Source: a phage. From it: a DNA stretch of 64,000 nucleotides. Both the position numbers and the translations under genes were made by a program. Every line of letters starts with the position of its first letter. The first letter of the stretch is position 1. Below are positions 30,985 to 34,958 of the stretch, piece after piece. The stretch is taken from sequence record PZ583743.1, one strand, 5' to 3'. The notes under the pieces are model-generated. The model saw only the letters and a program-made list of their open reading frames with translations, did no database searches and was not told where the DNA came from.

Positions 30985-30985
<1 letters not shown>

Positions 30986-31698
30986 TATAGTACCTTTAGT
31001 GTATTTTTAATTTTAGAAAAAAGTTCTTCAAGAGAACCATCATTTGTAATTACTAAATCACCATCACGAATTGGCAATCCAGCTTCTGTAATATGAGTAT
31101 CATTGGATTTTTGACCAGGACGAACTACATGAATTACTGTAGCACCCATCGCCCTAGCCGCATCCATTTCATGATCTTGACGAGTATCAGGAACGATATA
31201 ATAATCATAACCTGAATTAAATTTATCAAGATAATCTAAAGCAAATAATTTTACCCAATACATGCGGTCGAAGTTATTAACAATCAAATCCGTACCTAGG
31301 GCTTGCATCAGACGACGGACTGACCATTGATCTTCAATATTATTTATAACGTCAGCAATCTTGTTAAATGCTACGAAATTAACTGCGTCATCAAAAACAA
31401 ACACACCTTTAATTGGGCTTTTACTATTAAGATAGCAAAATGCTTGTTCCATAATCGTAATTACTTCTAATTTAGTCAGATTTAAATTAGTCTCACGATC
31501 ATAGTCAATTCCTTCAAACTCTTTACGAGTTAAGCAAGGATAGTCAGTGTTTGCTGCAAATACACCCCATGCATAAGCCAATGCATCCTTAATAGGACCA
31601 GCAAGTTGATATTTAACTGCAGAATAATTATTCATAATAAAATCTGCAGTAGTATCTTTTCCACTACGCTTTACACCACTTAAAAAGATTAGTTTCAT
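30985..31698 (-). CDS. 1: Deoxynucleoside monophosphate kinase
   Basis: 237 aa; P-loop GVKRSGKDT at N-terminus. Confidence 0.9.
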
Positions 31699-31747
31699 AT
31701 GTTTCTCCTCAAATTTAGTTAAGATTATAACACATGAAACTGAAGCA

Positions 31748-32278
31748 TTAAACTTCTGCTATAATTTTGCCATCTTTTTCTACTTGAAAATACGTATAAG
31801 GAATCGTTGCTGTACATACTAAAGCTGGGTCTGAATCTTCCGTGTAGCTAAATTCTACTTCAGACAGGTCAGAAACCCAAGGCTTATAAAAATTTATTGA
31901 CATCACGATTTCAGTTTTACTGTTATCTAAAATGTAAAGCGTAATGTATTCAGGACCTGTTTTTTGGGCAGTATTTTCGCCTGTAAGATAGTTACTAGTT
32001 CCTAGCATCCATTCATACATTCCTATCCACGACTTAAGCTCTTCATCAACTATAAATCTCACAATGAGTGGGTCGTACTCAAATGTAACTCCTGGACGCT
32101 GTGCTCGGCCTAGTCCAAACGGCCCAGTCACGGTATCAGTAACAGGTATCCTAATTCCCGGAATAGGAACTGACTGAGCATTTAAAGTAAAAGCAGATGT
32201 AGTATTACTATGTGGTATTGATACTACAAAGTTAGTTGTATTTGCTTGGTTAAAAATTTGTTGTAGTGCTTGCGACAT
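31748..32278 (-). CDS. 3: Tail completion / sheath stabiliser protein gp3
   Basis: Start at ATG 32276-32278 (MSQALQQIF) after GAGGA gives 176 aa, the T4 gp3 length; synteny with genes 1 and 2. Confidence 0.7.
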   Translation of the reverse strand: MSQALQQIFNQANTTNFVVSIPHSNTTSAFTLNAQSVPIPGIRIPVTDTVTGPFGLGRAQRPGVTFEYDPLIVRFIVDEELKSWIGMYEWMLGTSNYLTGENTAQKTGPEYITLYILDNSKTEIVMSINFYKPWVSDLSEVEFSYTEDSDPALVCTATIPYTYFQVEKDGKIIAEV

Positions 32279-32384
32279 ATATTCCTCATAATGCTTTATA
32301 AATGTTGGTGGTATAATGGGTCTAAGTCCCTTCCATTCAATTCCAATTAGAACAAACAATAGAAAAGAATGGAAGATAATAGAA

Positions 32385-33044
32385 TTAATTTATTAGACTT
32401 CTTAAACGAGCAGAAGTCATAAATGGAAATTTTTCTAAAGTTGGCTTTCGCCAATATCTTGGATGACAAGTTGATTTAAAATCAAGAACAATTTTCTTTG
32501 CTTCATCAATAGTGCTAACTCCAAAGTTATCTAACATTATTTTCTTTTCTTTTTCCCACCGTTTATTAGCTAAAGCAGATTGAAGCTTTTTGTTTTTAAA
32601 TGTATCATTTTTTCTAGAATGAGTTGTGCCTTGTGTCGGACTCCATCCTCTTCCTAAAATAAATCCCTCAGGAATTATATCTCCATCATGCAATTTTATA
32701 CATCTTTTACCATTATTATAATATTTTCGTCCAGTTTGTGTATTTGAAATATTATTTGCATGTTTTCTTTTTAACCAACCATAAACTTTATTATTTCTCC
32801 TAACATATTTAGTTGAAACCGTCATTTTTATGGCCGCATAAGATAATTTTAAAGAATTTGGGTGTATTTTTACTAATAGTTGATGTGCAACATAATGCTC
32901 TTCTGGAGTTAAATCAACCAAGTTAGAAGCATCATTACTACCGCCTAAACATTTCGGAATAATATGATGTCTTTCTTTATATCCAGTAAGGGCTCTATTG
33001 CGAGCCCTATCAATTAGTGAATTATAAATTTTTTCATAATTCAT
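32385..33044 (-). mobile_element. Freestanding HNH homing-endonuclease-like gene inserted between genes 2 and 3
   Basis: Start at ATG 33042-33044 (MNYEKIYN), overlapping the gene 2 TGA; HNH motif ERHHIIPKCLGGSNDASNLVDLTPEEHYVAH; basic C-terminal region. Confidence 0.8.
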
Positions 33045-33868
33045 CGTACATTGCTCCAAACTTTGTTTGCAGAGAAACGTTTTCCTTTGGAGTAGAAGCT
33101 TTGGAGTGGCATTAACACAACGTTCGCCCAGTCTTTCGGGGCGATTTCAACAAGGCTACCCATAATATTACCGGGTATATATGCCTTAATCATTTGGTCT
33201 GCACCCCTAAATCCTTTCACTTGACTCCAATCAATTTTTAATTTCGTTTTATTAGTAATAGTAGGTGTATTTGAATATTGCTTTAAAAGCTCTTCTAGAA
33301 ATTGCTGACGAGCTTTAGGTGGAATATAGTGCAAGTTCAATCCGTACATTAAATTATGTTTACCTAAACCAAGGTAAATTATCAAAGGAAATTTATCCCA
33401 ATAAGGAAGAGTTTCTTTGTGTTTAGCGTCGTAAGCAAAAGCATATATTCGTCCCGGCTGCGGGCGAACAACTTTATGTCCTTTTACCTGTTTAATAGTT
33501 TCAGCAAACCACTTTCTGGTTTTATTATTAATTGCTGCGCCTTCATTACGAATTTTATCACGCAATGTTTGTCTGAATGAATTTATCATAAGCAGTTGTC
33601 TTTCTTGCTTATTGAGTTTATTCATTGGTTTTGATTCAAGCTTTTGAATCTTTTCAGCTGTTTTAATTCCTGAAGCATATTTTGACATTGCCGAAGTAAA
33701 CGTAGAATATTTAATTCCTTTTTCTTCAGCAAATTGCTTTCCTGTCATTCCTTTTGCTTTGGCCTTTTTGTATTCAAGACCTATCTGAATCCATTTCTTT
33801 TCGTTTAATGATTGCTTAACCTTTGGAACTTGGGGAGTGCTTTCATTAATTATTTGAAAAATAGCCAT
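33041..33868 (-). CDS. 2: DNA-end protector protein gp2
   Basis: 275 aa; position between genes 4 and 3; TAATG overlap with gene 4. Confidence 0.8.
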
Positions 33869-34320
33869 TATGCCCCCTTAAAGCCAAGAGCTCGTAATCC
33901 ATCTTCTGTTAAAATTCTAAATTTTATTCCACGCTTTTCAGCTAAAGCTTGAGCTGCTTTCCATTTGTCAGTATTAACTGAATATGTATAAATTTCATTC
34001 ATAAATCTTTTCTTCGCTGCAGTTGTTAGATGTGCTGGTTTAATTGGTGGTTGTGTTTCTTTTTTAGGCTTTATTTCAATAAAAAATTCTTGTCCAGAAG
34101 AATCTTTCATCCAAATATCCATGAAGTATCTACGTTTTTTCCCTTCTGCATTACAAAAATAAGGAATTACTGCTGTTTCACTACCCCATGCAATAATTTC
34201 TGGATTTTTATCTAACCATTCAAAAAAGAATTTTTCCCAATTTGATCTATACGTAATTTTTTTAGGGTCACCTCTATATTTTGATATATTTTTAGGAACC
34301 CATTTTCCAGAATATGCCAT
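33868..34320 (-). CDS. 4: Head completion protein gp4
   Basis: 150 aa, the T4 gp4 length; divergent from gene 53. Confidence 0.8.
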
Positions 34321-34331
34321 TGGATTCTCCT

Positions 34332-34354
34332 TATAAATAGATAATATATTTATA
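34332..34354. promoter_or_regulatory. Divergent late-promoter cores (TATAAATA on both strands) between genes 4 and 53
   Basis: Plus-strand TATAAATA at 34332-34339 (gene 53); minus-strand TATAAATA at 34347-34354 (gene 4). Confidence 0.6.
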
Positions 34355-34367
34355 AACAGGAGGGCCC

Positions 34368-34958
34368 ATGCTCTTTACATTTTTTGATCCGATTGAATAT
34401 GCGGCCAAAACGGTGAATAAAAACGCGCCGACTATTCCTATGACAGATATTTTTAGAAACTATAAAGACTATTTTAAACGCGCTCTTGCGGGATACCGCT
34501 TACGTACTTATTATATTAAAGGTTCACCACGCCCGGAAGAATTAGCAAATGCTATATATGGAAATCCACAGTTGTATTGGGTTTTATTGATGTGTAATGA
34601 TAATTACGATCCGTATTATGGATGGATTACTTCGCAGGAAGCTGCTTATCAAGCATCTATACAAAAATACAAAAATGTAGGTGGAGACCAAATAGTATAT
34701 CATGTTAATGAGAACGGTGAAAAATTTTATAATTTAATATCATACGATGATAATCCATATGTTTGGTATGACAAAGGCGATAAAGCTAGAAAATATCCTC
34801 AATATGAAGGAGCACTTGCTGCTGTTGATACGTATGAAGCTGCTGTTCTTGAAAATGAAAAACTTCGTCAAATAAAAATAATAGCAAAATCAGACATTAA
34901 TTCATTTATGAACGACCTTATACGTATAATGGAGAAATCTTATGGAAATGATAAGTAA
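34368..34958 (+). CDS. 53: Baseplate wedge protein gp53
   Basis: 196 aa; synteny immediately before gene 5. Confidence 0.85.
   Translation: MLFTFFDPIEYAAKTVNKNAPTIPMTDIFRNYKDYFKRALAGYRLRTYYIKGSPRPEELANAIYGNPQLYWVLLMCNDNYDPYYGWITSQEAAYQASIQKYKNVGGDQIVYHVNENGEKFYNLISYDDNPYVWYDKGDKARKYPQYEGALAAVDTYEAAVLENEKLRQIKIIAKSDINSFMNDLIRIMEKSYGNDK

Follow-up and report, generated by a model that had tools for sequence, protein, structure and literature searches.

The window analysed here is a stretch of 64,000 nucleotides of phage DNA (sequence record PZ583743.1), in which a 219-codon open reading frame (ORF) lies between gene 2 and gene 3. This ORF, termed the HEG (homing endonuclease gene) below, is listed in Table 1 with the other features of the locus. 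The genes for gp4 and gp1 are found farther out, beyond those for gp2 and gp3, and gp3 matches the Pfam Phage_T4_gp19 family (E 1.5e-12). The limits of the HEG, taken from the ORF listing and the raw sequence, are an ATG at 33044-33042 and a TAA at 32387-32385. A longer version of the ORF would begin at a TTG at 33059; the conserved Mob N-terminus MNY..IY..L favours the ATG. The first-pass annotation had described a 219-aa ORF with an HNH motif and a start codon overlapping the gene 2 stop, and all three points hold: the ORF is present, on the minus strand (which had been left unstated), the motif KERHHIIPKCLGGSNDASNLVDLTPEEHYVAHQ is found as quoted, and positions 33044-33041 read ATGA on that strand.

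Table 1. Features of the gene 4-2-3 region, in coordinates of the window.
Feature	Position	Strand	Remarks
Gene 3 (tail tube terminator / sheath stabiliser)	31748..32278	-	176 aa
Spacer between genes 2 and 3, now between HEG and gene 3	32279-32384	-	106 nt; unchanged relative to T4
Mob-type HNH HEG, free-standing	32385..33044	-	219 aa + stop
HEG stop codon, TAA	32385..32387	-	Read from the sequence
Lineage-specific C-terminal half, residues ~104-219	32388..32735	-	Presumed DNA-binding module
HNH catalytic core, residues 24-54 (ERHHIIPKCLGG..N41..H50..H54)	32883..32975	-	Beta-beta-alpha fold in the predicted model
RNA hairpin within the HEG, AGGGCUC-GCAAUA-GAGCCCU	32989..33008	-	7 bp, -13 kcal/mol
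ATGA overlap of HEG start codon and new gene 2 stop, TGA	33041..33044	-	Read from the sequence
Cluster B, recoded 3' tail of gene 2	33041..33061	-	GTTTGGAGCAATGTACGATGA (VWSNVR-stop); in T4 GTCTGGTCAAATATCTAA (VWSNI-stop)
GGAG, Shine-Dalgarno-like	33054..33057	-	9 nt upstream of the HEG ATG; read from the sequence
Gene 2 block coding KGKRFSANK, between clusters A and B	33062..33088	-	Identical in both allele types
Cluster A, gene 2 patch	33089..33106	-	CTCCAAAGCTTCTACTCC (LQSFYS); in T4 CTTCAGCAGTTCGTTTCA (LQQFVS)
Gene 2 (DNA end protector)	33041..33868	-	275 aa here, 274 aa in T4; 3' end altered
Late-promoter consensus TATAAATA, upstream of gene 4	34347..34354	-	From a consensus scan

In T4 (NC_000866), an ORF-free spacer of 106 nt parts gene 2 (76061-76885) from gene 3 (75424-75954), which bears out the first-pass statement that the two genes are adjacent there, at a junction without an insert. 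The HEG is flanked by the ORFs of genes 2 and 3 and lies outside any intron or intein; an Rfam search of positions 31600-34450 at E<=1 matched no family, group I introns included, and no paralogue of the HEG was found within the window.

The encoded protein and its relatives

In the homology search against Mob families that the first-pass annotation had proposed, BLASTP matches the HEG protein to T4 MobE (62% identity over 63 aa of the N-terminal domain, E 1e-26), MobB (45% over 126 aa, E 8e-30), MobD (53% over 75 aa, E 1e-22) and MobC (34% over 134 aa, E 1.5e-17), as well as to a MobA fragment (45%). The protein also matches PHROG 655, "homing endonuclease" (E 9e-59), and a BFVD fold search places T4 MobB and MobC among the top matches. 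The AF2 model has a pLDDT of 86.6.

Residues H26, H27, N41, H50 and H54 are unchanged across an alignment of 23 orthologues, and the loss of HNH residues that would speak against an endonuclease is thus not seen. A profile of the family aligns the HNH residues to those of McrA (6ghc), a group II intron maturase (6me0), Cas8-HNH and IscB; these enzymes are reached by the family profile only, as a phmmer search of the PDB with the single HEG protein gives zero matches. The Pfam scores lie below the curated gathering thresholds (HNH, PF01844, 16.5 bits against a cut-off of 21.4; HNH_5, PF14279, 17.8 against 27.5), and such sub-threshold HNH matches occur in 21 of the 23 orthologues, yet the motif is still clear in the alignment. 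A GIY-YIG domain was sought in Pfam, PHROGs and NCBIfam without a match. Of the "mob/seg-type" assignment made earlier, the Mob (HNH) part therefore stands, while the Seg (GIY-YIG) part does not. By its sequence, the HEG protein is a Mob-family HNH endonuclease, for which nuclease activity and homing are predicted.

Homing enzymes of this kind combine a catalytic domain with a variable C-terminal module (PMC2988022). In the AF2 model, the C-terminal half of the HEG protein comprises a beta-hairpin region, a disordered linker (residues 137-146) and four helices. BLASTP finds no similarity to the T4 Mobs past about residue 128, and in the alignment conservation of this half is limited to the orthologues that share the insertion site. 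It is presumed to bind DNA. The half is basic, as had been claimed (pI 10.1, with 25 K+R against 11 D+E), and so, to the same degree, is the N-terminal one (pI 9.95). A similar design, an HNH domain with an extended DNA-binding region, is found in I-HmuI, the intron-encoded nicking HNH enzyme of Bacillus phage SPO1 (PMC2988022). The HEG is not intron-encoded and so falls outside the I-HmuI type; I-HmuI gave no sequence match in the PDB searches and no match in the fold search.

MobE is the closest T4 paralogue in the catalytic domain, but it is only 141 aa long and its C-terminal part is unrelated to that of the HEG protein. The gene for MobE sits between nrdA and nrdB, so that insertion site and presumed target both differ from those of the HEG. 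Nicking and mobility have been demonstrated experimentally for MobE, whereas for the HEG they are predicted. MobB, MobC and MobD have the N-terminal HNH domain in common with the HEG protein, and all begin MNY..IY..L; their C-terminal halves and insertion sites are unrelated to those of the HEG, and their genes lack its internal hairpin.

The gene itself is of a known kind, and its interpretation as an HEG is correct: it has been annotated before, in RB32 and about 30 other T4-like phages. The RB32 gene, ORF146c (ABI94970.1), corresponds to the HEG in both sequence and position and differs from the present copy at 5 nt, one of which changes an amino acid. Copies identical to ORF146c are carried by RB33, HY03, fPS-2, vB_EcoM_112, CAM-21 and others. 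Nucleotide identity over the ORF is 98.8-100%, and the HEG is 99-100% identical to ORF146c and to about 30 other Tequatrovirus copies. The RB32 annotation describes ORF146c as a putative "site-specific intron-like DNA endonuclease", "similar to mobB" and not conserved from the T4 position, and the orthologue in VR7 is annotated as ORF161c. Among the papers searched, none was found that deals with the gene, whether as ORF146c, as VR7ORF161c or under related terms.

The junction, the end of gene 2 and the internal hairpin

The HEG cassette measures about 659 nt and is inserted at the stop codon of gene 2. Full-length orthologues occupy the same site in VR7 (ORF161c), VR25 (gp162) and members of Moonvirus, Roskildevirus, Winklervirus and Dhakavirus, and they resemble the HEG in their overlapping start, their conserved hairpin and their patchy occurrence within each genus. 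The overlap takes the form ATGA, TTGA or TAATG in these other genera. In Gaprivervirus, where the copies start with TTG, the insertion is perfectly clean: the cassette directly follows the last sense codon of gene 2 and directly precedes its stop codon. By analogy with this clean junction, the TAA of the HEG would be the former stop codon of gene 2.

In the window, the end of gene 2 is itself altered. The Shine-Dalgarno-like GGAG arose when TCA, a Ser codon of gene 2, was recoded as AGC; in Gaprivervirus such recoding is unneeded, because the native gene 2 tail already holds GGAG. When the left flank (1279 nt) is compared with T4, 20 of the 52 mismatches fall within the last ~80 nt, whereas the side towards gene 3 shows no excess of mismatches relative to T4. 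This final ~80-nt part of gene 2 is likely to be a target or co-conversion zone.

The two clusters of substitutions in this zone are distributed differently. Cluster B is confined to HEG-bearing records, and every alignment of an HEG-free record ends just short of it. Cluster A occurs in all HEG-bearing copies but also in about 15 HEG-free phages, vB_SsoM_113 among them, and both of its variants are found in other genera. It was therefore rejected as a strictly HEG-linked mark, and may be an ordinary polymorphism of gene 2 instead of a mark of immunity or co-conversion. The KGKRFSANK block between the clusters is a candidate binding site for the HEG protein, after the model proposed for MobE (PMC2790892).

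The mobE gene also offers a precedent for expression. It has been established that mobE is promoterless, overlaps the upstream stop codon (UAAUGA) with its AUG and contains an internal terminator, and that its product nicks in a strand-specific manner, with immunity arising from polymorphism (PMC2790892; PMC2988022). The HEG is similar in its start codon, which likewise overlaps an upstream stop, and in the conserved coding block of its neighbour gene with polymorphic positions on either side. Like mobE, it may also lack a promoter of its own: in the consensus scan, TATAAATA does not recur from the promoter of gene 4 down to the HEG, and the gene 4 site is the sole one upstream on the strand. 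Matches to a sigma-70-like consensus are no more frequent than in shuffled sequences. The ATGA overlap is real, but the earlier statement that the HEG is co-translated with the late operon should be narrowed to co-transcription with possible translational coupling.

A further likeness concerns the RNA hairpin, which begins 36 nt past the first base of the AUG in the HEG and at +33 in T4 mobE, where the stem-loop is a functional terminator (PMC2790892). The HEG hairpin is conserved in all orthologues with compensatory changes (92.9% of cells paired, a value reached in 6 of 500 shuffles). Its U-tract is weak (3 U in 8) and weaker than that of mobE, and a simple terminator scan does not flag it. 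By position, it is the counterpart of the mobE internal terminator and may have the same role.

A second structure, a hairpin sequestering the ribosome-binding site in which clusters A and B would pair and bury the GGAG (fold z = -4.6), was considered and rejected as indistinguishable from chance. When the upstream 60 nt were dinucleotide-shuffled, 18% of the shuffles still left the Shine-Dalgarno sequence at least 0.99 paired, and the energy of the real fold was unremarkable, being equalled or bettered in 69% of them. T4-type alleles fold about as well as the HEG-type upstream region, and the strong z value is due to hairpins inside the HEG ORF.

Distribution, alternative readings and proposed spread

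The comparison of junctions in related genomes, another check proposed at the outset, shows that T4 and most relatives lack the HEG, which marks it as an insertion. According to INPHARED BLAST, from which the population counts are taken, a full HEG is present in 37 of 504 junction-matching Tequatrovirus records and a deletion remnant in one, while the others have an empty site. The gene is therefore far from universal among close relatives, being absent from T4 and from about 92% of Tequatrovirus records. In Gaprivervirus, 7 of about 32 phages carry it and about 25 are free of it. A scan of IMG/VR with gp2 yielded three close relatives only and was not used for counts, because that collection is dereplicated. 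Same-site orthologues occur in at least six genera of Tevenvirinae (Tequatrovirus, Moonvirus, Roskildevirus, Gaprivervirus, Winklervirus and Dhakavirus), and HEG-bearing genomes are otherwise about 98-99% identical to HEG-free T4-like genomes.

Such patchiness could also arise by repeated loss. The HEG would then be the relic of an ancient Mob-type insertion, inherited vertically, immobile, and perhaps inactive or kept for some other benefit. Amino acid identity between genera is 51-65% for the HEG and 69-73% for gp2 (65% and 73% between Tequatrovirus and Moonvirus, 51% and 69% between Tequatrovirus and Roskildevirus), and this roughly parallel divergence of gene and flanks is also compatible with a gene long resident by vertical descent and repeatedly lost. 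A few decayed copies are found as well, with a 486-nt in-frame deletion in CT01, a frameshift in FL23 and FL44, and loss of the stop codon in Manna. However, dN/dS between close orthologues is 0.06-0.13 over the whole length, which denotes strong purifying selection; together with the invariant catalytic residues, this means that the HEG protein is still under selection.

Evidence from closely related pairs also weighs against a relic. The flanks of the HEG in VR7 are 98% identical to those of HEG-free VR26, and yet the VR7 HEG is separated from its Gaprivervirus counterparts in VR25 and TH55 by a dS of 0.55. When compared with near-identical HEG-free relatives, gene 2 has a diverged patch adjoining the HEG both in the window and in VR7; in VR7 the pattern looks like lateral acquisition with co-conversion. 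Similarly, HEG-free AUBRB02 is nearer to the window in its flanks (98.7% identity) than many HEG-bearing records are (97.3-98.6%). With these observations, the relic explanation appears unlikely.

Terminase-associated HNH proteins exist in some other phages. An HNH protein encoded beside gene 2 might accordingly be no selfish element but an accessory of DNA packaging or DNA-end biology, acting with the terminase or with gp2 and gp4 (head completion, TnsA-like nuclease fold). The HEG always adjoins gene 2, with a translational overlap, across six genera, and neighbouring gp4 has a Pfam match to TnsA-like endonucleases (E 1.7e-21). Nevertheless, T4 and the large HEG-free majority of Tequatrovirus package DNA normally, and the disrupted copies described above are natural ones from isolated phages. 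The catalytic domain is, moreover, a close paralogue of those of the mobile MobE, MobB and MobD, and its combination with a variable C-terminal module is the layout of a homing enzyme (PMC2988022). A role in packaging is thus highly improbable.

The best explanation identifies the ORF with RB32 ORF146c, a free-standing member of the T4 Mob (HNH) family of HEGs that is presumed to spread by homing; a probability of roughly 0.8 is assigned to this reading. As a passenger without a promoter, the HEG would be transcribed late on the gene 4-2-3 transcript, by analogy with MobE and MobA. It would be translated weakly through coupling to the termination of gene 2, with help from the GGAG in the recoded tail, and the conserved internal hairpin may limit its transcript. 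In a mixed infection, the C-terminal module would bind the conserved 3' end of gene 2 in an HEG-less phage, and the enzyme would nick or cut nearby. Recombinational repair from the HEG-bearing genome would then transfer the cassette, along with neighbouring gene 2 sequence, to the recipient. The donor itself would be immune, its site being changed by the insertion and by the substitutions that cluster in the final ~80 nt of gene 2.

The same cut could be looked upon chiefly as a weapon between phages, which damages gene 2 of HEG-less co-infecting relatives and so excludes their late markers, with spread of the gene being secondary. Seg and Mob enzymes have been documented to exclude markers locally (PMC2988022), and the gene proposed as target is a late one, both essential and conserved. 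Mechanistically, however, this is the same event as homing, so that the two differ in emphasis and not as separate mechanisms, and sequence data do not separate them. That exclusion is the chief role is considered improbable.

Free-standing HNH homing endonucleases are scattered through T-even genomes, where they bring about localised gene conversion and the exclusion of markers when phages co-infect. The HEG is a further example of them, with little import beyond correct annotation. The analysis fixes precisely where it is inserted and where its candidate target, the final ~80 nt of gene 2, lies. Pairs of HEG-bearing and HEG-free phages with flanks about 98% identical (VR7 and VR26; this phage or RB32 and AUBRB02 or T4) offer a handy system for an uncharacterised Mob enzyme. 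In addition, with the conserved hairpin, what was observed of the mobE "internal terminator" may hold for a second Mob lineage.

A broader and more tentative proposal, which is rather doubtful at present, is that the HEG lineage and mobE form a Mob subgroup with a conserved internal attenuator hairpin. The HEG lineage would have persisted at the gene 2 stop through the radiation of at least six Tevenvirinae genera by repeated within-genus homing, and its enzyme would read a conserved block of gene 2 coding for 11 residues. The synonymous and near-synonymous substitutions clustered on either side of that block (clusters A and B) would serve as cleavage-immunity alleles. If the clusters do act in this way, the approximately 15 HEG-free phages that carry cluster A would be naturally resistant empty sites, and would point to an ongoing arms race.

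A Mob-type gene between genes 2 and 3

The homing endonuclease gene (HEG) lies between genes 2 and 3, on the minus strand of the window, the strand being an addition to the earlier observation. The ORF listing and the translation, which includes the motif KERHHIIPKCLGGSNDASNLVDLTPEEHYVAHQ, bear out the first-pass annotation of a 219-aa HNH ORF at this place. Its ATG had been said to overlap the gene 2 stop, and minus-strand positions 33044-33041 read ATGA, so that the HEG start codon overlaps the TGA of gene 2. As the first-pass annotation had it, gene 2 adjoins gene 3 in T4, where a spacer of identical length (106 nt) separates them with no ORF between. The C-terminal half of the protein is basic, as claimed, and both halves are (pI 9.95 and 10.14).

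Features of the gene 4 to gene 1 region in the window
Feature	Coordinates	Strand	Remarks
Late-promoter consensus TATAAATA (T4)	34354-34347	-	just upstream of gene 4
gp4, head completion protein	34320..33868	-	upstream of gp2
gp2, DNA end protector	33868..33041	-	275 aa; directly upstream of HEG
Cluster A	33089-33106		gene 2 3′ end
Cluster B	33041-33061		gene 2 3′ end
HNH ORF (HEG)	33044..32385	-	219 codons + stop; ATG at 33044, TAA 32387-32385
AU-rich predicted hairpin (AUUAUGAAAAAAUUUAUAAUU, ~11 bp)	33015-33040	-	spans HEG codons 2-9
Internal hairpin (AGGGCUC-GCAAUA-GAGCCCU)	33008-32989	-	begins 36 nt after first AUG base; -13 kcal/mol
Spacer, 106 nt	32279-32384		between HEG and gp3
TTATAAAGC	around 32291-32299		~20 nt upstream of gene 3 ATG
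gp3	32278..31748	-	Pfam Phage_T4_gp19, E 1.5e-12
gp1, dNMP kinase	31698..30985	-	Pfam DNMK, E 5e-104

Pfam HNH matches to the HEG protein are sub-threshold; against PHROG 655 (‘homing endonuclease’) the protein reaches E 9e-59. BLASTP against the T4 proteins of NC_000866 finds MobE (62% over 63 aa, 1e-26), MobD (53% over 75 aa), MobB (45% over 126 aa, 8e-30), MobC (34% over 134 aa) and a MobA fragment (45%), all sharing the start MNY..IY..L and none aligning past about HEG residue 128. These matches and PHROG 655 support the Mob half of the proposed mob/seg-type assignment. A database search returns 2933 relatives, about 24 of them full-length (46-99%), while the rest match the N-terminal 45-60% only. 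H26, H27, N41, H50 and H54 are invariant in 23 of 23 full-length sequences, across which the C-terminal half is likewise conserved, and the family profile aligns the HNH motif to McrA (6ghc), a group II intron maturase (6me0), Cas8-HNH and IscB. The AlphaFold model (pLDDT 86.6) predicts an N-terminal helix, a beta-beta-alpha core, two helices and a beta-hairpin, followed by a disordered linker (137-146) and four C-terminal helices. PDB searches are uninformative; BFVD matches are phage HNH homing endonucleases, T4 MobB and MobC among them. The catalytic domain is that of a Mob family member with an intact HNH motif.

The gene is already known: its GenBank annotation as a putative, mobB-like endonuclease dates from 2006. 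The RB32 record lists it as ORF146c, a putative ‘site-specific intron-like DNA endonuclease’ that is ‘similar to mobB’ and ‘not conserved from T4 position’. ‘Homing endonuclease’ is its annotation in dozens of records. Two ‘mob-like HNH’ genes were counted in RB32 in a 2010 review (PMC2993671), and no discussion specific to ORF146c was found in the literature searched. HEG belongs to a well-characterised kind.

Neighbouring genes have features of their own. gp4 matches Pfam Tn7_TnsA-like_N (TnsA-like endonuclease N-terminal, E 1.7e-21) and therefore shares the restriction-endonuclease-like fold; the name ‘head completion nuclease’ is already used in some records. Gene 1 encodes 237 aa versus 241 aa in T4 (714 versus 726 nt), a difference seen in the T4 alignment as 13 mismatches or gaps concentrated in a single 60-nt bin, and gene 1 of RB32 and vB_SsoM_113 is of T4 length. 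In distant T4-like phages the gene 53/4/2 neighbourhood holds other N-terminal HNH domains of Mob-like type (46-56% identity across residues 1-107) at differing positions, upstream of gp4 (loci L013/L014, ~1340-1670 in their own numbering) or between gp4 and gp2 (L019, a 235-kb contig, 1845-2174). Mob-type genes may thus have landed repeatedly in this neighbourhood.

Distribution, insertion site and decay

A 2.7-kb query that spans genes 3 through 4 hits 666 phage records, the closest being Tequatrovirus DCP2, CJY920 and SF2-1 (99.0% identity). Only 37 align over its full length; the remainder mostly cover 75%, the query without the 660-nt ORF. With a junction-centred query (504 records matched), HEG is full in 37, four RefSeq/GenBank duplicates included, is a remnant in Shigella phage CT01 and is missing from the others. 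Carriers include RB32, RB33, HY03, fPS-2, vB_EcoM_112 and CAM-21. The suspected insertion relative to T4 and most of its relatives is borne out, the T4 site being empty.

Orthologues of full length (51-65% amino acid identity) occupy the interval between gene 2 and gene 3, their starts overlapping the stop codon of gene 2, in Moonvirus (NM4.3), Roskildevirus (Cronus), Gaprivervirus (TH55, VR7, VR25), Winklervirus (X20), Dhakavirus (dhabil) and the unclassified Citrobacter phage Ursula. Gaprivervirus is itself patchy, with 7 carriers versus ~25 HEG-free phages. Its junctions are cleaner than those of Tequatrovirus: the empty site reads ...AATTCA|TAATCTATT and the occupied one ...AATTCA|CTTTGAATTAT...AAA|TAATCTATT, placing the cassette exactly between the last sense codon of gene 2 and its stop codon. 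The former gene 2 TAA is now the HEG stop, and gene 2 has gained one codon and a TGA overlapping the HEG TTG start.

In Tequatrovirus, junctions of the window, RB32, CT01 and one empty-site phage were aligned, followed by eleven alleles. The downstream flank (TAATTCTATT...) is invariant from the stop codon on, and the gene 2 3′ end carries two clusters of differences. Cluster B is found strictly with HEG: the T4-type GTC TGG TCA AAT ATC TAA (VWSNI*) becomes GTT TGG AGC AAT GTA CGA TGA (VWSNVR*), which places a new GGAG 9 nt before the HEG ATG. Cluster A, ~30 nt upstream, changes LQQFVS to LQSFYS (9 of 18 nt), and the KGKRFSANK-coding block between the clusters is the same in both allele types. 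Of 52 T4 mismatches in the 1279-nt gene 4-gene 2 flank, 20 fall in its last ~80 nt, and the gene 3 side has no excess of them.

Every HEG-bearing copy has the insert-type cluster A. It also occurs with a T4-type gene 2 tail in ~15 HEG-free Tequatrovirus phages, such as vB_SsoM_113, SG1 and the laboratory-evolved T4_ev151. These alleles (loci L060, L062 and ~13 others) might have arisen through loss of HEG or by recombination, or they might confer resistance. At the protein level, LQSF. and LQQF. both occur in other genera as well.

Several copies have decayed. In CT01 (L002, 2186-2359), 486 nt are deleted in frame from the 5′ border of the internal hairpin onward; the 57-aa ORF that is left lacks the HNH motif. 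FL23 and FL44 (L061, 1197-1855) share a 1-nt deletion that shifts the frame to a stop at codon 64. Salmonella phage Manna (PP987310.1; L063, 1197-2492) has lost the HEG stop codon (equivalent to window 32385-32400). There, a T4-type gene 2 tail (...AGTCAAATATCTAATTC, 1 nt shorter) replaces the final HEG codons, and the open frame continues over the 106-nt spacer to join gene 3 in frame; a single 431-aa ORF is annotated in the record, and no gene 3. Recombination with an empty allele could have left this end, or it could reflect an error in sequencing. That disrupted copies occur naturally, and that T4 and most relatives lack HEG, argues against its protein being a packaging or DNA-end accessory.

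Expression signals and the internal hairpin

A minus-strand scan finds no further TATAAATA between the gene 4 promoter and HEG, and sigma-70-like matches do not exceed their frequency in shuffles. A first RNA fold, in which clusters A and B paired and buried the GGAG, is unsupported by controls. The strong fold signal comes from the hairpin within the HEG ORF, which recurs in 10 of 10 orthologues examined, at +32 to +37, with compensatory changes in Gaprivervirus (U-A to C-G) and dhabil (G-C to U-A). Its alignment has 92.9% of cells paired versus 12-57% with partners slid, and the observed pairing is reached in 6 of 500 shuffles. The tract of U that follows is weak (3 U in 8). The corresponding hairpin of T4 mobE, at +33, is stronger; most other Mob-like genes, including mobB, mobC, mobD and ~75 metagenomic relatives, have none there.

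The AU-rich second hairpin adds to the low folding energy (z = -4.6) and is not conserved in the orthologue alignment. The gene 3 spacer has no exact TATAAATA; its TTATAAAGC, invariant in the compared alleles apart from a varying base directly before it (T, G or A), might serve gene 3 as a variant late promoter. Such a promoter would matter if the internal hairpin of HEG terminates transcription.

Homing as the proposed mechanism

The gene mobE, between nrdA and nrdB, offers an analogy. It is promoterless, its stem-loop is a functional internal terminator limiting mobE transcripts, and MobE nicks T2 nrdB strand-specifically (Wilson and Edgell, PMC2790892). On the same authors' proposal, a conserved stretch of coding sequence is recognised by its DNA-binding module and the polymorphic sequence beside it is the substrate of the HNH domain, an arrangement that renders the donor immune (PMC2790892). 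A review notes that the AUG of mobE overlaps the stop of nrdA, which points to coupled translation (PMC2988022). HEG appears to mirror these features, its hairpin being a putative terminator with a weak U-tract.

The comparisons establish the cassette structure and site, the patchy distribution, the decayed copies, the asymmetric flank divergence and the conserved internal hairpin. On the proposed mechanism, HEG would be co-transcribed late with genes 4-2-3 and translated by coupling at a low level, with the hairpin attenuating its transcript. The enzyme would bind the conserved gene 2 3′ block and nick or cleave HEG-less genomes; repair would copy the cassette and co-convert the gene 2 tail, and the insertion together with the gene 2 substitutions would confer immunity. 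A role as a competition weapon would be mechanistically the same event as homing.

HEG might instead be a vertically inherited relic that is no longer mobile, as its divergence parallels that of the flanks. However, close orthologues have dN/dS of 0.06-0.13, which shows purifying selection on HEG, and VR7 contrasts with its HEG-free relative VR26: their flanks are 98% identical, while the VR7 HEG stands at dS 0.55 from the VR25 and TH55 copies, and a ~45-nt diverged patch of VR7 gene 2 adjoins HEG (LQAFYSKGKKFSAQKVW versus LQQFMSKGKRFSSQKVW). Both points argue against a relic; the VR7 pattern is the trace expected of lateral acquisition with co-conversion.

The first-pass interpretation is supported wherever testable. 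The exact stop-codon insertion, the six-genus distribution and the mobE-like internal hairpin appear not to have been written up so far in the literature searched, and each is incremental. Together, the patchiness of the orthologues, the VR7 case, dN/dS and decay fit a homing-gene cycle of invasion, maintenance, decay and loss.
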